Assembly (NCBI RefSeq): GCF_003231495.1
Contig: NZ_PQWO01000006.1
Span: 90,001 to 122,000, forward strand
From: Acaryochloris thomasi RCC1774
Lineage (GTDB): Bacteria; Cyanobacteriota; Cyanobacteriia; Thermosynechococcales; Thermosynechococcaceae
DNA: 32,000 nt
Direction of reading: 5' to 3'
In this document: one piece after another, positions 16,350-23,342 of the stretch
Numbering within the stretch: position 1 is the first letter of the stretch
Layout: the number at the start of each line of letters is the position of its first letter
Translations under genes and position numbers: made by a program
The notes under the pieces: generated by a model
What the model was told of the DNA's origin: nothing
Databases searched by the model: none
The model's input: the letters and a program-made list of their open reading frames with translations, nothing else

Positions 16350-18350
16350 GTGCTGTCGTCAGAGTCAAACACTATGGATATTTTTGTGAACGTCATTAGC
16401 AGTGCACAGTCAATACCAGCTGATCGTATCGAATATGGATATCTACCGACATATATACAAGATATTCAGCGAGCTTGGCGACTGGCGGAACAGCCGTATG
16501 ATAAAGATCCCAAGGGTGCCGTTGACGTAGCTCCTATTCCGGGTTGTGAGAAGCCAGCAGCTATTGCACTTCAGGTTCGATATGCCGCAACCCTCTCAGT
16601 CCTCAATAGCCTTGTTAGTCAAATTCCTGCGCCATTGATAGCAGCTCTCGTGACTCAGCGAATCTGGACATTAGAGCAAGCCTGGACTCTCATGGAGCAT
16701 TCTTCACCAAGAAAGCAGGTGGAGATTTTCGAATGCTTAGTAAATCATCTATCTGATGCTGAACAACACCCGGCACTGGCTGCTGTTCTGTCCGTTCATG
16801 ACGAATCGGCACGCGCTCGTATGTTGAGTTTGCTAGCCCCGGTTCTGTCTGAAGCACTGTTGATCCAAGTATTAGAACACCTAGGGGAGCTGACATCGGA
16901 GCACTACCGTTCTCTGGTCCTCTGTCGTCTGAGCTGCTATCTCCCTTCTAGTCTTGTTCCACGGGTTATTAATCTCACCTATGAGATTAATAACCCGATT
17001 GACCGGCTGACTGTGTTGAGTTGTTGGGTACAGCGCCAAATATCACTGTTGCCTAAGATCTTCGCTGCTCTGAAGTTGATTCAAGAACCTCAGGTCTTGA
17101 GTCAGGTCCTCGCGACTATTGCTCCCCATCTGCCTGCTCACTTCGTACCTATCGCTATTCAGATGGCTCGAAGCGTTGATGAGCCAGAGGAGCGGTATGA
17201 CATTCTAAGCGCACTAGCCATCCATCATTCACCTTTGCAATCTGAAGTGCTAGAGCTGTCTAGCTATCTGGAAGATGAGTTCACACTCGCCAATTCTCTT
17301 GCGAGCCTAGCGGCTGACGGTGCTTTTGAGACCAGTGAGGAGATATTAACGAGGATCAGTCAGATTGAAAATGAAGCCGCTCGAACCCTGGGCTTGAGCC
17401 TGGTTGCCCCACACCTGGCAAACGTGATTATGGCCGAGCTATTACAGGAGATACAGCGCCTGCAATCTGAACACCATCGCGTCCAGGTTTTCAAGAACAT
17501 TCCTCTGTCAGCCTCGATTATCCCGCAGGTGCTGCAAATGACTGCAGGTTTCAAGAATGCTGGAGCGCTTGCTACAGCTCTCAGTACTCTGGTGCCGGTT
17601 AAGCCCACCCTCATGCCAGAAGCACTGCAGGCAGCTCAACAGATTGAAGATTTACGCGTTCGAGCTAATGTCCTTGGGGAGATCGCGATTCATCAACCGA
17701 CCCTCTGGCCCACTGTCTTGGATGCCATTCGACAAATCCCTAGTGAGTTATCACGTGCGACAGTACTTCGACATCTGGCTCCCCACTTACCAGAGCTATC
17801 TATGGCATCTGCGCTCGATCTAGTTGCTGAAATATCAGAGTTGCCTGTGCGCGGTCAAGCTCTTAGCGGCTTGGCGATGTATCTACCCCAGCATCTCTTG
17901 GGGAGAGCGCTGACTCATGTTCTGGAGATTCCAGATTTGTCGGTCTTCGCTTCGATTGCACAACAGTTTGAGCCGACTCAAGTCGTGGCCCATCGCTGTA
18001 TCGATAGAGTTTCTGTGCTTAATGCATTAGCCTCCTATGTACCTGAAGAACTGCTAACGGAAAACGTTCAGATAACTGAGCAGATTGACGATCCAAAACT
18101 CCGTGCCCAAGCTTTAAGTGGACTACTGCCCCAACTCAATCTGAAACCAATCGATGCTGCTAAGCTAAGTGAGCGGCTGCACTGTCTAGCCTCTCGCTGC
18201 CACCAAGATTTCTTGGCGGATCTATTGAGGTTGGGACCAGCAATCGCCCATCTTGGTGGACCTGAGTGTTTATCGGAAATTGCTCAGCATCTGCAAACCC
18301 TAGAATCTCAGTGGGTGCAACGTTCTCTCTTGAGGCCTCAATTAAAATAA
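16350..18350 (+). CDS. Helical tandem-repeat protein (about 14-15 units of about 31 aa, R-x-x-x-L-x-x-L-A-P-h-L-P type); function unknown
   Basis: Recurring units include ARARMLSLLAPVLSEALL, SQVLATIAPHLPAHFV, ARTLGLSLVAPHLANVI, RATVLRHLAPHLPELSM, RGQALSGLAMYLPQHLL, RVSVLNALASYVPEELL and RAQALSGLLPQLN. The track start is GTG 16350. ATG 16374 (MDIFVNV) is more likely. Confidence 0.75.
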   Translation: MLSSESNTMDIFVNVISSAQSIPADRIEYGYLPTYIQDIQRAWRLAEQPYDKDPKGAVDVAPIPGCEKPAAIALQVRYAATLSVLNSLVSQIPAPLIAALVTQRIWTLEQAWTLMEHSSPRKQVEIFECLVNHLSDAEQHPALAAVLSVHDESARARMLSLLAPVLSEALLIQVLEHLGELTSEHYRSLVLCRLSCYLPSSLVPRVINLTYEINNPIDRLTVLSCWVQRQISLLPKIFAALKLIQEPQVLSQVLATIAPHLPAHFVPIAIQMARSVDEPEERYDILSALAIHHSPLQSEVLELSSYLEDEFTLANSLASLAADGAFETSEEILTRISQIENEAARTLGLSLVAPHLANVIMAELLQEIQRLQSEHHRVQVFKNIPLSASIIPQVLQMTAGFKNAGALATALSTLVPVKPTLMPEALQAAQQIEDLRVRANVLGEIAIHQPTLWPTVLDAIRQIPSELSRATVLRHLAPHLPELSMASALDLVAEISELPVRGQALSGLAMYLPQHLLGRALTHVLEIPDLSVFASIAQQFEPTQVVAHRCIDRVSVLNALASYVPEELLTENVQITEQIDDPKLRAQALSGLLPQLNLKPIDAAKLSERLHCLASRCHQDFLADLLRLGPAIAHLGGPECLSEIAQHLQTLESQWVQRSLLRPQLK

Positions 18351-19327
18351 GTCTTATACTTTTTGTAGAGCTTAAGGCCAGGAATCGGCTGCTTAAAGGT
18401 CTTAGGGTAACGATACCTGCGGTCCATATATTCCTCTTGCAGGTGACGAATCGCTAGATAATTCTCGTACCATTGCTCAAGAAGAACGACAAGAGCCTGA
18501 AATTTTGGATAAGCTAACTTGTACTTTTCACTTAGGGCAGCGTACTGCAGTAAAATGCCGTAGGCTTTTGTACTGTGGAGAGTGGTCGGTAGCGCAATAA
18601 CCTGCGCCATTTTTTCAAAGGTCTCGTAGTTTGCGATAACTTCGCCATTCAAGTATGCGCGATCTAATAAATCAGTTCTCTGGAGCTGGTCAATAATGGC
18701 AGAGATTGTTCTCAATATAGAGAAATCGGTTAGCTGGTGCTGCTTGAATGAGCATAGCAGTTGAAAGCTGAGGGGATGGTTTGCAACAACTCTCAAGTGC
18801 TTGAAATAGGACTGTAAAGCTGTTTTGCCTTCAGACGTCCGCATTTGGGTGATTGTCTGGCCATATTGTTGCTGTACTGAATCGATAAATTCAATGGGCG
18901 ATAAATGGGCTGGATAAAGGGATTCAATAAACCGATAAAACTCGGACTGTTTAGTGCTGTGATGCCCAAATTCAATACTTTCAATGCCCAGGAAAGCAGT
19001 TTTCGCCTTGATCCCAGCCATTAATAGGTCGATATAGGCGTCTAAATTCTCATAACTCGAATTTCCTACAGCGAGATCTCGCTTCATGCGCACAAATGCA
19101 AGAAACTCTTGATTTCCGAATTTGTCTCGATCGATGGCGTTGGCTCGAACTAGCAATGCTTCAATATTTCTGAAATGCCGATCGTATAGGTGAATTGCAT
19201 TCTCTGGAACAGCTTCCTTCTGAAAGCTTTTGTAGAAGGCTGATATCTGTTCGACCATGCTTTGATTGCCAATGAGTGGCCGATTCCACCAAGGCTTTTT
19301 CTGCTTTAGGTTTTGTAAGACTGCCAT
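18338..19327 (-). CDS. Hypothetical protein (329 aa), A+T-rich gene
   Basis: Long uninterrupted ATG-initiated ORF, predicted all-helical, with no motif recognised. Its 3' end overlaps the convergent repeat-protein gene by 13 nt. Confidence 0.6.
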   Translation of the reverse strand: MAVLQNLKQKKPWWNRPLIGNQSMVEQISAFYKSFQKEAVPENAIHLYDRHFRNIEALLVRANAIDRDKFGNQEFLAFVRMKRDLAVGNSSYENLDAYIDLLMAGIKAKTAFLGIESIEFGHHSTKQSEFYRFIESLYPAHLSPIEFIDSVQQQYGQTITQMRTSEGKTALQSYFKHLRVVANHPLSFQLLCSFKQHQLTDFSILRTISAIIDQLQRTDLLDRAYLNGEVIANYETFEKMAQVIALPTTLHSTKAYGILLQYAALSEKYKLAYPKFQALVVLLEQWYENYLAIRHLQEEYMDRRYRYPKTFKQPIPGLKLYKKYKTYFN

Positions 19328-19832: not shown

Positions 19833-20762
19833 CTAGAGAGGGGAAGACTCATTTTGGGCCGATGTACTGCAGCGCTTGAGCCAAGATCCTTCTGACTTCC
19901 AGGCTTGTTCTTGATAGAGCAGAGCAGTGAGGTGAGTGATGGAGAGCAAAATAGCTGCGATCGCAAGTACATAGCTATGCAGCGCATACATGTGCTGGAG
20001 CGTTAGGCTGCTGATTCCGGCTCCTCCGGTCAAGAAGGCTCTTAGCCCAGGGCCAACCAGCGGAATAGAGGCGATAGTCCCCATTTCAATCTTGAAGCGC
20101 CAGAACCCTGCCTGGTCCCAATTGAGAACGACGGCAGTCCAGCTTAGGCCGATGGCTGAAACGGTCAAGAGCAATCCGCTAATCCAGGCTGTGAACCAGG
20201 GCAGCAAAAACTGACGTCCCAAGTACATCACTACAATCTGAATGAGAGCTAAGACAATTAGGCCATTGCCCGCAATGTTGTGCAGACTGAGGATGAGAGT
20301 GCCGCAGGAAATTTGGGTTGCGATCGCAACCAACGATTGATGGGCCCCCATTGCAGAGGGTTCATAATAAAATGCCAGCATAATACCCGTAAAAGCCGCC
20401 ACGCCGCAGAGTGTAAGCTCTGCCACAGCTAAGAGCGTCGCCAGCCGTTGGAGGACAAAGAAATACTGGCTAGTGAATGGGTTTTTATCTTGATCCAAAT
20501 CTAGAGGTTGGGCAGTGGTTTTTCTGCGGGGCAAGAAGCGCTGTAGCTGATGAATGACAATGATGCTGCCAACGTAAATGACAAAATAGAGCAGTCGCCA
20601 GCGAAAGATTAACGTGGCTTGCCAGTCTCGATAACGGGCTTGCAAGGCTGGATACGAAGCTGTGATGTCTCGCAACCAGTCCTGGTAAGTTAGCCATTCC
20701 TCTGGGAAACGGCTGATGAGTTTGCCGATAGCGCCTGCTCGTTCAATATCCTTTGCACTCAT
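19833..20762 (-). CDS. Cytochrome b/b6 N-terminal-domain-like membrane protein with an N-terminal extension
   Basis: Aligns by eye to PetB: TGIMLAFYYEPS / TGFAMTFYYRPT; LSLHNI / RSVHRW; LNWDQAGFWRFKI / LPWDQIGYWAVKI; IPLVGPGLRAFLTGG / IPVIGSPLVELLRGS; YALHSYVL / YSLHTFVL; SITHL / MLMHF. The second heme-ligand His is replaced (LIQIV versus ILHVF). The start lies 1 nt after the padR stop. Confidence 0.75.
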   Translation of the reverse strand: MSAKDIERAGAIGKLISRFPEEWLTYQDWLRDITASYPALQARYRDWQATLIFRWRLLYFVIYVGSIIVIHQLQRFLPRRKTTAQPLDLDQDKNPFTSQYFFVLQRLATLLAVAELTLCGVAAFTGIMLAFYYEPSAMGAHQSLVAIATQISCGTLILSLHNIAGNGLIVLALIQIVVMYLGRQFLLPWFTAWISGLLLTVSAIGLSWTAVVLNWDQAGFWRFKIEMGTIASIPLVGPGLRAFLTGGAGISSLTLQHMYALHSYVLAIAAILLSITHLTALLYQEQAWKSEGSWLKRCSTSAQNESSPL

Positions 20763-20763
20763 G

Positions 20764-21093
20764 TCATGCTCCCTTAGGTTCTGGGGTCCAATGCGCGATA
20801 CTTTTTAGCAGTAATTGTTTGGTCTCAAGAGCCTCGGCTCCTGTACCGGTTATGCGGTAGTACTTTCGTCTTGCTCCGGTATGTTTTTCAGGGGCTTCTT
20901 CTCCCCACTCAGATTTGACAAAGCCTTTCTGCTCAAGCTTTTTGAGGTTGGGATAAAGCGAGTTAAACCCAATTTGCTTACCACCACTTTGCTCAATCGC
21001 CTGTAATATCTCTAGCCCGTAGCGTCTCTTGAATTGAAGTGCAGCCAGAATAATCTCCTGGTTGGGTGTTAGACGCAAATCTTGAGTACTCAT
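20764..21093 (-). CDS. PadR family transcriptional regulator (short, about 110-aa class)
   Basis: Winged-helix pattern ILAALQFKRRYGLEILQAIEQ...GFNSLYPNLKKLEQKGFVKSEW...RRKYYRITGTGAEAL. Confidence 0.9.
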   Translation of the reverse strand: MSTQDLRLTPNQEIILAALQFKRRYGLEILQAIEQSGGKQIGFNSLYPNLKKLEQKGFVKSEWGEEAPEKHTGARRKYYRITGTGAEALETKQLLLKSIAHWTPEPKGA

Positions 21094-21104
21094 ATTGATC
21101 GCAA

Positions 21105-21161
21105 AAGACTATCACTAAGATATATCTACGGAAATAAGACTATATCTATTATTTAGATATA
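21105..21161. promoter_or_regulatory. Candidate PadR operator / promoter region
   Basis: Perfect 10-bp palindrome AGATATATCT (21118-21127). Perfect 8-5-8 inverted repeat TATATCTA-N5-TAGATATA (21141-21161). Each is preceded by the direct repeat AAGACTAT (21105 and 21136, 31 bp apart). All lie within 70 nt upstream of the padR ATG. Confidence 0.45.
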
Positions 21162-21205: not shown

Positions 21206-22678
21206 TTAGAATCCCTGTGGTGTTTGTCGATCTCCGATGATGCTGTCGAGTTGAGTTGCGATCGCAAACAGATCCCCTTCCCTCCACCGCTTACCAACAA
21301 TCTGCAGTCCCACAGGCAATCCTTCCAGAGTTTGCCCTACAGGAATCACCACCGCCGGATGTCCGCTCAAATTAAAGGGCATCGTATAGGCCCCATTCGC
21401 CACCCCATGCGGATAGGCACGACCGTCAACATCAATCGCAGTCCATGAGGGACGATGGGTAAACGCTGGAGTAACCGCCACCGGGCACAGCCAAGCATCC
21501 CACGGCTCAAGAATCGAATCGATGTGAGCCGTGAAGCGATCGCGTTCTGTCAGGGTTTCAAAATATCCCTTTAGGCTGGGGTTGAGTAACTCAGGCAAAA
21601 AGCGACTGAAGTTTCCTAACCGTCGCAGCTCCTTATCTCCCTGGGTAGCTGTCCGCCACAACAGCTTTACGCTATGGCGAATCGTGTGGCGATTCACCGG
21701 CTGGGCGTATTTATTGACGTAGGCCGCCATCCGTCCATAGAGTTCAAACATTTTTGAAAAGTCAAAGGAAGCCGGTTCCTCCATCCGGATGCCTGCATCC
21801 GTTAGTTTGCGGAGAACGCCTTGCAGAATCTGCTGTGTTTCAGCACTAATGGGAACCTCGGGCCACTCCTCTGTCCAGGCTAGTTTAAGAGACTGCAGAG
21901 ACTTCTCTGACGGAGAATTGAGCGGAATGGGTGGCACCTCTGGGCGACGTGAATCAGCACCCGCAATTAGAGAAAAGCCAAGCTTGAGATCCTGTAGTGA
22001 TCGCGCCAGGATCCCCACCGTCATCATTTGACGTAGGCAAACCGGCAGCCCAGGCACCTCTGGAATTGTCCCGGCAGTGGAAATTCGTCGATCCGTAGGC
22101 TTCAACCCGTAGATACCGCAGAAATGAGCGGGCTGTCGTACCGATCCAGCGATGTCGTTGCCAAAATCTAGGGCTGATAGTCCTGCCGCCACCGCAGCCG
22201 CACTCCCACCAGAGCTGCCGCCGGGAGTATAGTTCAAATTCCAAGGATTGTTGACCTGCGGGAAAAGAGAATTGGTGCTTTGAAAATCACCGCCCAGCTC
22301 GGCTAAATTGCTTTTGCCCATGATGATCGCTCCAGCCGCCCGCAGTCGAGCAACAACAGTGGCATCCTGTTGAGGAATATAGTCTTTGAGCGGCATATAA
22401 CCGGCAGTGGTCTTGAGTCCTGCGGTTTCAAAAATATCCTTGAGGGTGATTGGAACACCGTGCAGTGGCCCCCAATTTTCTCCCTTTGCCAGGGCAGCAT
22501 CTGCCTGCTTTGCTCTATTGCGAGCGCTGTCTTCATCTAAGGTACAAATTGCGTTGAGTTTGGGATTGTGCTGAGCAATCTGCACCAGATAGGCGTCGAG
22601 GAGTTCGGTGGCGGAGAGGGTGCGATCGCAAATCATTCCCGCCAACTCGCAGGCCGATCGAAAAACTAAATCAGTCAT
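21206..22678 (-). CDS. Amidase (amidase-signature family)
   Basis: The GGSSGGSAAAVAAG signature is present. Upstream lies LHGVPITLKD, containing the conserved Lys of the AS family's Ser-cisSer-Lys triad. Confidence 0.9.
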   Translation of the reverse strand: MTDLVFRSACELAGMICDRTLSATELLDAYLVQIAQHNPKLNAICTLDEDSARNRAKQADAALAKGENWGPLHGVPITLKDIFETAGLKTTAGYMPLKDYIPQQDATVVARLRAAGAIIMGKSNLAELGGDFQSTNSLFPQVNNPWNLNYTPGGSSGGSAAAVAAGLSALDFGNDIAGSVRQPAHFCGIYGLKPTDRRISTAGTIPEVPGLPVCLRQMMTVGILARSLQDLKLGFSLIAGADSRRPEVPPIPLNSPSEKSLQSLKLAWTEEWPEVPISAETQQILQGVLRKLTDAGIRMEEPASFDFSKMFELYGRMAAYVNKYAQPVNRHTIRHSVKLLWRTATQGDKELRRLGNFSRFLPELLNPSLKGYFETLTERDRFTAHIDSILEPWDAWLCPVAVTPAFTHRPSWTAIDVDGRAYPHGVANGAYTMPFNLSGHPAVVIPVGQTLEGLPVGLQIVGKRWREGDLFAIATQLDSIIGDRQTPQGF

Positions 22679-22714
22679 GAGGGGACTCTATGCCGCAGAC
22701 TTAATGGAGTTCAT

Positions 22715-22737
22715 TATATACCTATTTAGTTAACGGC
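22715..22737. promoter_or_regulatory. Candidate TetR operator in the divergent amidase/tetR intergenic region
   Basis: Perfect 9-5-9 inverted repeat TTTAGTTAA-CGGCA-TTAACTAAA in the 76-bp intergenic region, ending 17 nt upstream of the tetR ATG. Confidence 0.5.
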
Positions 22738-22754
22738 ATTAACTAAAATAAATT

Positions 22755-23342
22755 ATGGGTCGCCCCACAAAAGAAAATTCACTTTCTCGTCAGGATGTCA
22801 TCAACGCAGCGGTCGAATGCATCGATCAGGAGGGGGCATCTGCATTGGGAGTCAGTCGAGTGGCGCGTCGTCTGGGTATTAAGCCACCTGCTATCTATAG
22901 ACACTTAGAAAATGGTACCCATCTACAGCAGGCGACAGCTATCGAGATTTGGCAGCGGTACCTTTCTGATTGCGAGCAGACACTGGCGGGTAAAGATATT
23001 ACGCTGAGCTTGCTCAAGCAGCTCGGTTTTTTCATTCGGGACTTTGCCAAAAGCTATCCTGGGCGCTACCAGGTCATGATGCATGTGCAGCTCCAGCCGA
23101 ACGACCCAGATGCCGCCACTGTTATCAACCGCAGCCTTGACTTTCTGCGTCAAGCTCTCTGTGCCTATGACCTAACAGAGACGCAGCTTATTGATGTGAT
23201 GCGGATGCTGAATGCCGCTATCTATGGTTTTATCTCCGTGGAGCAGTCAGGTTTGATGACGTTAGAGCGACCTGCTGACCAGAGCTATGGCGTTATGCTA
23301 GAGGCACTGATCGCTGCAGTTAAATATGTTGAGGGACAATAG
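22755..23342 (+). CDS. TetR/AcrR family transcriptional regulator
   Basis: N-terminal HTH: RQDVINAAVECIDQEGASALGVSRVARRLGIKPPAIYRHL. Confidence 0.9.
   Translation: MGRPTKENSLSRQDVINAAVECIDQEGASALGVSRVARRLGIKPPAIYRHLENGTHLQQATAIEIWQRYLSDCEQTLAGKDITLSLLKQLGFFIRDFAKSYPGRYQVMMHVQLQPNDPDAATVINRSLDFLRQALCAYDLTETQLIDVMRMLNAAIYGFISVEQSGLMTLERPADQSYGVMLEALIAAVKYVEGQ

Follow-up and report, generated by a model that had tools for sequence, protein, structure and literature searches.

A stretch of 32,000 nucleotides from the cyanobacterium Acaryochloris thomasi RCC1774 (contig NZ_PQWO01000006.1, positions 90,001 to 122,000; the whole stretch is called the window below) carries padR, a gene for a small PadR-type transcription regulator, and directly behind it a gene for a 309-aa membrane protein derived from cytochrome b6. 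The two genes are proposed to form a self-contained, autoregulated signalling unit in which PadR is paired with a membrane sensor that is b6-derived and probably holds one haem; the probability of this reading is put at about one half. Pairs of PadR with a membrane partner are already known, and what is new here is the partner domain and the cytochrome-derived sensor module. The coordinates of all features are collected in Table 1.

A conserved pair of padR and a cytochrome b6-like gene

The padR product matches the Pfam PadR profile (PF03551) over residues 15–90 of its 109 (1.6e-17, 63.7 bits, cut-off 27). Its length, close to 110 aa, and its winged helix with a single C-terminal helix behind it are features of the short single-domain PadR regulators. 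The closest NCBIfam model, TIGR03433 (padR_acidobact), gives 55 bits, which is under the cut-off of that model. On the gene strand, the junction with the b6-like gene reads GCA TGA C ATG AGT (stop, one nucleotide, start), and a Shine-Dalgarno-like AAGGGAG run is found within the final padR codons.

Homologous loci were obtained by a scan with one genome per species, which returned three groups. Group A consists of 24 loci with full-length b6-like relatives and includes Acaryochloris marina MBIC11017, Leptolyngbya sp. PCC 7375, Hyella patelloides, Lusitaniella coriacea, Mastigocoleus testarum, Symploca, and Xenococcaceae. Group B consists of 33 loci with a shorter relative, which matches from residue ~62–104 on (mostly ~97) and whose gene is readable in 32 of them. 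The third group contains ordinary cytochromes b with approximately 30% identity. In group A, a padR orthologue lies immediately 5' of the b6-like gene in 22 of the 24 loci; of the other two, one is cut off by the end of the contig (L023) and in one padR has decayed (L012). All 22 loci that retain padR have the stop-N-ATG junction, with GGGGG or GGAGG ahead of it. The original prediction, made from the letters of the window, had described the 1-nt gap and the coupling of the two genes and had proposed a survey of their linkage; the gap is as it was read, and the coupling proves to be real and conserved.

When all neighbouring open reading frames (ORFs) were clustered, padR and the b6-like gene were the sole genes conserved across group A. 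No regulon or complex partner (petD, Rieske, or transporter genes were sought) is common to the group A neighbourhoods. Across 25 loci, neither a petD-like nor a Rieske gene recurs beside the b6-like gene, and the window copy has none nearby. The genes that surround the window copy (amidase, TetR, and pentapeptide) do not recur at the other loci.

The b6-like core and its haem ligands

The 309-aa protein matches Pfam Cytochrome_B (PF00033) over residues 117–283 (profile positions 22–187 of 189; 8.6e-23, 81.6 bits, cut-off 27.2) and also matches Cytochrom_B_N_2. Cytochrome_B was found in all 53 homologues scanned. The top sequence matches in the Protein Data Bank (PDB) are cytochrome b6 chains (1.6e-24 to 1.3e-23), one of the alignments pairing residues 96–280 of the query with residues 21–205 of b6, and bc1 cytochromes b match far more weakly (~1e-13 or worse). 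The best Foldseek matches are b6 chains as well, with 24–30% identity in the structure-based matches. Against the NCBIfam model for cytochrome b6 (NF002990 / PRK03735), the protein reaches 95.7 bits and the cut-off is 325, which places it outside b6 proper. The protein is a divergent b6 paralogue and not PetB. Both the homology to cytochrome b6 and the position outside the b6f complex had been predicted, and these claims hold up, the latter on the NCBIfam score and on the lack of petD or Rieske genes nearby.

Ligand positions were taken from ungapped HMMER alignments and from a MAFFT alignment with b6 and other cytochromes b. Conservation was assessed in 120 homologues from a search of 5.8 billion proteins, which returned at least 120 clusters with 54–83% identity; these homologues have ~290–390 aa and all named ones are cyanobacterial. 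Three of the four haem-ligating His residues (two in helix B and two in helix D) are present, namely H161, H262, and H277, which correspond to b6 H86, H187, and H202. The second His of helix B is replaced by Gln. This substitution, Q175 in place of b6 H100, was part of the original prediction, as was the retention of the other three ligands, and the alignments bear out both. Since Gln occupies the position in 120 of 120 homologues, neither a sequencing error nor recent decay can account for it.

Other changes surround the lost ligand. Three residues past it, b6 has R103, which anchors a propionate of the n-side haem in b6 and bc1; this residue is V178 in the window protein and Val across the clade. 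In addition, b6 R83 is replaced by L158 in the b6-like family. The haem-packing glycines are largely retained (G126 is invariant, G196 is found in 103/120 and G205 in 104/120). Conservation is also good in the cd-loop motif lining the b6 quinol site (W215, Q217, W221, and K224). E115, C119, Q175, and H277, polar residues specific to the family, are all located in the n-side half of the helix bundle. The simplest reading of the alignments is that the p-side bis-His site (H161/H262) has been kept and the n-side pocket rebuilt. Judged by its ligand positions, the core most likely binds one b-type haem. Attachment of a haem cn through C119 was considered and is not supported: b6 Cys35, the site of the haem cn thioether, aligns with L118 and not with C119 in both HMMER and MAFFT, and the Cys is not conserved in group B.

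The likeness to PetB extends over helices A–D, the cd loop with its WDQ...W..K motif, both p-side His residues, the n-side His of helix D, and the glycines. The b6-like protein differs from PetB by the changes H100 to Gln, R103 to Val, R83 to Leu, and R182 to His, by the lack of a Cys in the Cys35 register, and by ~75–100 extra N-terminal residues. Moreover, its gene is coupled to that of a transcription factor, and petD, petC, and petA are not adjacent.

The core-only proteins of group B have 196–240 aa, are 52–59% identical to the window protein over the core, and lack the N-terminal domain. At position 175 they contain Q, E, or N, but never His, and at position 119 C, S, T, or V. H277 is replaced by N or Q in 8 of the 32 readable proteins and H161 is lost in two. 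Groups A and B have in common the absence of Arg at the R103 position and the presence of H257, E226, and R222. The group B loci (L025–L057, e.g., L031:5989-6618) come from Nostoc and other Nostocales, Chroococcidiopsis, Leptolyngbyaceae, and Microcoleus. Their genes share no conserved neighbours outside of Nostocales synteny. Within Nostocales, they lie near genes for products that resemble plastocyanin and c-type cytochromes by eye, a proximity which may reflect shared ancestry only.

An N-terminal domain that travels with padR

AlphaFold2 (AF2) predicts three helices in the N-terminus of the 309-aa protein (residues 3–16, 20–43, and 46–76). The predicted local distance difference test (pLDDT) score is 88–96 over approximately residues 1–70 of the full-length model, and the first 78 residues modelled alone reach 87.8 with a predicted TM-score (pTM) of 0.72. 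The domain is marked by F19, W23, Y26-Q-D-W-L30, W47, and I52-F-R-W-R-L57, which can be summarized as EW-x2-YQDWL ... FRWRL. A profile of residues 1–78 was searched against 1.84 billion representatives and returned 29 matches. These were limited to the b6-like family and to small (~80–230 aa) cyanobacterial membrane proteins.

Most of the small relatives (loci L081-L090, proteins P0123-P0148) have about two transmembrane (TM) helices and a basic linker, followed by the N-terminal domain (motif EWEEYQDWLHDILL...WKVSLITYWRL). The named ones are 'hypothetical proteins' of Coleofasciculus, Fischerella, and Xenococcaceae, for example MC7420_4746 of Coleofasciculus chthonoplastes PCC 7420 and WP_026731423 of Fischerella sp. 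PCC 9605. In all five examined, the gene for the small relative directly follows a padR. This padR is complete in four cases (110–115 aa), and in the fifth only its 3' end is on the contig. The four full-length PadR proteins are ~50–60% identical by eye to the window PadR, and a Trp in the C-terminal helix is kept in all five cassette PadRs that were aligned. In group B, on the other hand, no padR is found within 6 kb of any of the 32 core-only genes. Since the small relatives are accompanied by padR in 5/5 cases and the core-only proteins in 0/32, the linkage to padR follows the N-terminal ~56–75 residues and not the cytochrome core. At least two modules are joined to this N-terminal domain, the b6-like core being one of them.

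A fusion of the domain to PadR itself (a 'Rosetta stone' protein) was sought among the profile matches and none was found; the matches of 120–190 aa are membrane proteins. By analogy with known pairs, the N-terminal domain may be regarded as a previously undescribed PadR-partner domain. Two plasmids carry other cyanobacterial padR genes (~45% identical) that stand before genes for unrelated hypothetical membrane proteins, in Anabaena cylindrica PCC 7122 (L091:2477-3524) with a 1-nt gap and in Pseudanabaena sp. PCC 7367 (L093:2456-3881). The LPEDW/VPYEY...W motifs of these partners loosely recall FPEEW..YQDWL, and neither partner matched the N-terminal domain profile.

A candidate operator upstream of padR

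A palindrome of the form ATATC-N9-GATAT is found upstream of padR, and its right half continues on the gene strand into TATAGT, a hexamer similar to a -10 element. The palindrome is conserved, with the consensus TATATCCATTTWTTAGATATAGT. Allowing up to one mismatch, it is present 61–79 nt before the padR ATG in 20 of 23 upstream regions, compared with 1.35% of shuffled regions. Thirteen related loci have the exact form ahead of padR, the 32-kb window contains it once, and similar palindromes precede the padR genes that are paired with the small relatives. The site would fit the palindromic operator that PadR-family regulators have at their own or their target promoter. Its conservation suggests that the padR operon regulates itself, which gives computational backing to the earlier proposal that the cytochrome gene is under a PadR repressor.

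Between this site and the padR start, a second short palindrome, AGATATATCT, can be read; ATATATC-type strings stand at the matching relative place in several related loci, and it may be an auxiliary half-site. Simple scans of the window found no Rfam family and no terminator-like site. A promoter scan gave a single weak match, located within the b6-like gene; shuffled sequence gives more.

Topology of the N-terminal extension

Residue 21 of b6 aligns with residue 96 of the query, so that the protein has ~75 extra N-terminal residues. The third helix of the N-terminal domain continues into a hydrophobic segment (residues 57–73), for which the best 19-residue hydrophobicity sum averages +3.5, compared with −1.3 to +0.8 for core helices A–D. 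The linker that follows (residues 74–106) has a mean net charge of +4.6 across the 120 homologues, from which a cytoplasmic location is expected by the positive-inside rule. In the small relatives, a basic loop precedes the N-terminal domain and a strongly basic C-terminal tail follows the helix equivalent to 57–73. This arrangement places the domain in the cytoplasm and speaks against a membrane span by the equivalent helix in those proteins.

From this charge distribution we infer that helix 57–73 is interfacial or partly inserted, and that the core may keep the canonical b6 orientation with its rebuilt pocket on the cytoplasmic side. The original prediction had included an N-terminal extension of ~100 aa and, in it, an additional TM helix. 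The extension is there, at ~75 residues, and so is the hydrophobic helix, but the charges make it doubtful that this helix spans the membrane.

Table 1. Features of the padR cassette, numbered from the first letter of the window.
Feature	Positions	Strand	Description
padR	20764-21093	minus	109-aa single-domain PadR-type winged-helix regulator; Pfam PadR PF03551
b6-like gene	19833-20762	minus	309 aa; downstream of padR
Coupling junction	20760-20766	minus	TGA-C-ATG; 1-nt gap between stop and start
N-terminal PadR-associated domain	20595-20762	minus	Residues 1-56; AF2 pLDDT, conservation, profile search
Hydrophobic continuation of helix 3	20544-20594	minus	Residues 57-73; ~14 apolar residues with Arg/Lys on both sides
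Basic, poorly conserved linker	20445-20543	minus	Residues 74-106; AF2 pLDDT <50 at 78-95
Cytochrome b6-like four-helix core	19914-20444	minus	Residues 107-283, helices A-D and cd loop; Pfam, PDB, Foldseek
C119 codon	20406-20408	minus	Helix A; near-invariant Cys (118/120), one residue off b6 Cys35
H161 codon	20280-20282	minus	Equivalent of b6 His86, p-side haem ligand; invariant in 120 homologues
Q175 codon (CAG)	20238-20240	minus	Equivalent of b6 His100, helix-B n-side haem ligand; Q in 120/120
H257 codon	19992-19994	minus	Extra clade-specific invariant His; b6/bc1 have Arg (b6 R182)
H262 codon	19977-19979	minus	Equivalent of b6 His187, p-side haem ligand; invariant in groups A and B
H277 codon	19932-19934	minus	Equivalent of b6 His202, remaining n-side haem ligand; invariant in group A
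Candidate PadR operator	21142-21160	.	Palindrome ATATCTATTATTTAGATAT (ATATC-N9-GATAT); starts 67 nt upstream of padR ATG
Second short palindrome	21118-21127	.	AGATATATCT; between operator and padR start; read from sequence

Comparison with HAAS-PadR pairs and Listeria PadR operons

PadR proteins with membrane partners are best compared with the HAAS-PadR pairs. HAAS is described as a three-helix N-terminal domain fused to diverse TM modules and always adjoining a standalone PadR; the pairs are put forward as an alternative to two-component systems, are usually tied to envelope stress, and are proposed to work through a membrane sensor that controls the release of PadR (Ravi et al., mSystems 2024, PMC11237479). 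The NCBI name for the HAAS partner domain is 'permease prefix domain 1' (NF038403). The likeness to the cassette is considerable. A standalone PadR of ~110 aa is encoded directly upstream and tightly coupled to the membrane-protein gene, the two forming a self-contained unit, and a cytoplasmic helical domain at the N-terminus precedes a multi-TM module. As in HAAS proteins, this domain (residues 1–56, ahead of the hydrophobic segments) comes first in a membrane or sensor protein, and a standalone padR adjoins the gene. The analogy to PadR-associated membrane partners that was drawn in the original prediction is a good one, down to the tight padR junction.

Homology between the two domains was examined with a VanZ protein encoded next to padR on a Bacillus thuringiensis plasmid as the positive control (NCBIfam perm_prefix_1, 31 bits, cut-off 30) and with nine further Firmicute HAAS examples from plasmid records. 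A 78-aa Firmicute HAAS query returned seven near-identical matches only from a large protein database, and the profile made from the plasmid records was used instead. Eight of the nine examples are annotated and have padR directly upstream, with junctions that overlap or are 1–20 nt long; the ninth record is without annotation there. Pfam scans of the N-terminal domain in 53 family members and 10 small relatives revealed nothing HAAS-like, and its profile gave chance matches to designed helical proteins only in the PDB (E >= 0.09). Membership in HAAS is rejected, at this sensitivity, on the results of HMMER, hhalign, Pfam, and Foldseek; because the HAAS profile is narrow, a very remote homology is possible.

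The two also differ in other ways. HAAS has a kinked third helix with a GxP motif, whereas the N-terminal domain lacks GxP and most members break at R-Y-P45. The module fused here is a cytochrome b6 derivative, which falls outside the HAAS fusions cited from that source (PMC11237479), and both the domain and the cassette seem to be limited to cyanobacteria.

In Listeria, PadR repressors mainly control their own operons, which code for TM proteins (Hauf et al., 2019, PMC6624303). LstR and LltR of Listeria monocytogenes resemble the cassette in being PadR-type repressors of their own operons with TM proteins of unassigned role. They differ in phylum and in their partners, which are a RodA/FtsW-like protein and Lmo0600/0601 and contain no redox-cofactor domain.

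Proposed mechanism and alternative explanations

The scheme proposed here, in which we infer the binding of PadR to the operator and to the N-terminal domain, the haem content, the direction of signalling, and the nature of the signal, would operate as follows. A PadR dimer would bind ATATC-N9-GATAT, overlapping the -10 region of its own promoter, and would thereby repress both padR and the translationally coupled membrane-protein gene. Such self-repression fits the conserved palindrome, and the Listeria PadR repressors behave alike (PMC6624303). The cytoplasmic three-helix N-terminal domain (residues 1–56) would contact or sequester PadR. The b6-derived core, probably with one haem, would be the input module, with an n-side pocket remodelled by the changes of H100 to Q175 and R103 to V178, the addition of E115 and C119, and the retention of H277. 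A change in the redox state, ligand, or occupancy of the core would then be passed through the basic linker to the N-terminal domain and so set the level of free PadR at the operator.

In its most specific form, the b6 fold would serve as a sensory input that directly gates a repressor through a cyanobacterial PadR-binding domain; the core would hold one bis-His haem, and the n-side pocket (E115, C119, Q175, and H277) might take a five-coordinate haem, a quinone, or a metal. This version is judged less likely than not.

Several observations weigh against the signalling unit. The role of the N-terminal domain in binding PadR is drawn from gene neighbourhood, because no similarity to HAAS could be detected: the 309-aa protein, the family consensus, and the small relatives gave no match to perm_prefix_1 (NF038403; DUF1700-type) at E<=10, hhalign of a 57-sequence N-terminal domain profile against nine Firmicute HAAS N-termini returned a probability of 0.07%, and Foldseek of the domain against the PDB produced 0 matches. 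The p-side site is without its conserved Arg (R83, now L158), which makes even the single haem uncertain, and the AF2 model of the core is of moderate confidence (mean pLDDT 71.7). With one extra membrane span, either the N-terminal domain or the basic linker would come to lie on the wrong membrane face. The window has a single candidate operator, and each related locus with an exact site shows just one within ~6 kb. Finally, a literature search yielded nothing relevant on a link between PadR and b6 or on cyanobacterial b6 paralogues of this kind.

A different role can be imagined for the b6-like protein, in which PadR senses a small molecule, as do LmrR and the phenolic-acid PadR proteins, and the cytochrome derivative is the regulated effector only. 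It could then be an inducible decoy or resistance protein against inhibitors of the b6f quinone sites, or it could detoxify a redox-active compound as a small electron sink. Among PadR regulators there are many that bind their ligands directly and govern neighbouring resistance genes. LadR-mdrL is an example of such an arrangement (PMC6624303), and both the well-kept quinol-site motif of the cd loop (W215, Q217, W221, and K224) and the retention of the Trp in the C-terminal helix of five aligned cassette PadRs agree with it. However, padR tracks the N-terminal domain and not the cytochrome core, the small relatives of 80–230 aa contain no recognizable effector domain, and the quinol site of b6f requires subunit IV and the Rieske protein, neither of which is encoded nearby. 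The domain-neighbourhood evidence in particular weakens this explanation, which we regard as rather unlikely.

The core may also have lost its cofactor altogether and act as a TM scaffold that reports the state of the membrane (lipid, potential, or stress) to PadR through the N-terminal domain. The core has an axial ligand changed (H100 to Q), along with two arginines that bind propionate (R103 to V and R83 to L), some core-only paralogues go on to lose H277 (8/32) or H161 (2/32), and HAAS-PadR pairs are usually tied to envelope stress (PMC11237479). Yet H161, H262, and H277 are invariant in 120 members and G126, G196, and G205 are largely kept. Such constraint on ligand positions is hard to explain without a cofactor, and a haem-free core is for this reason judged improbable. 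Least probable by far is that the protein stands in for b6, as another PetB isoform, in a variant b6f complex under certain conditions. Alternative Rieske isoforms exist in cyanobacteria, and the top structural and sequence matches of the protein are indeed b6 chains. But it is only 24–30% identical to b6 in the structure-based matches and reaches 95.7 bits where the cut-off is 325, it lacks an n-side ligand, R103, and a Cys in the Cys35 register, and petD or petC is adjacent in none of 25 loci. The N-terminal extension of ~75 residues would, moreover, occupy the n-side face. The low identity, the missing ligands, and the absence of petD and petC nearby leave little room for it.

Variant cassettes and neighbouring genes

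Some group A loci deviate from the common arrangement. In Leptolyngbya sp. PCC 7375 (L012:5903-5994), all that is left of padR are two short tblastn fragments, and the b6-like gene downstream of them is intact. Here padR seems to have been lost naturally, and the organism could serve as a ready-made 'derepressed' strain. In Symploca (L004:5860-6939 and L005:1606-2685), the b6-like ORF starts at the usual stop-N-ATG junction and has ~44 extra residues before the conserved N-terminal domain. The b6-like gene of Mastigocoleus testarum BC008 (L022:2138-4562) is interrupted after codon ~40 by ~2.4 kb that encode a reverse transcriptase and a maturase/HNH protein (Pfam RVT_N, RVT_1, GIIM, and HNH), which looks like a group II intron within the coding region of the N-terminal domain.

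In the window, an amidase gene (490 aa) on the same strand as padR stops 112 nt ahead of it, and a TetR-family gene diverges from the amidase gene; both lie within positions 21206-23342. This pair looks like a separate regulatory unit and is absent beside the cassette in other species. Two large convergent ORFs of 666 and 329 aa (16350-18350 on the plus strand and 18338-19327 on the minus strand) overlap by 13 nt at their 3' ends. The 666-aa ORF looks leucine-rich and repetitive by eye, and neither ORF gave a Pfam match at E<=0.001. The HIP1 octamer GCGATCGC occurs 19 times in the window, compared with 0.6 expected (e.g., at 19957, 20320, and 21258), and two of the copies fall inside the b6-like gene. 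Such an excess identifies the DNA as cyanobacterial.

Significance

Database labels such as 'cytochrome b6' and 'cytochrome bc complex cytochrome b subunit' are attached to proteins of this kind and mislead metabolic reconstruction. The family would offer a case of an energy-conserving cytochrome converted to a signalling domain, and its invariant His-to-Gln substitution is a natural experiment on n-side haem ligation. The cassette occurs in the culturable Acaryochloris marina MBIC11017, where the orthologue of the 309-aa protein is encoded at about 6,081,888-6,082,826 of NC_009925.1, and in Hyella patelloides LEGE 07179. If the proposed reading is true, the EW-x2-YQDWL domain would add a second family of membrane partners of PadR, independent of HAAS.

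Cyanobacteria must convert photosynthetic and respiratory electron flow into gene expression, and few direct membrane-to-DNA sensors are known in them. A haem module that descends from b6 and acts on a repressor would make a compact redox or ligand sensor, and would give oxygenic phototrophs a new path by which membrane redox, quinone, or gas chemistry reaches transcription.

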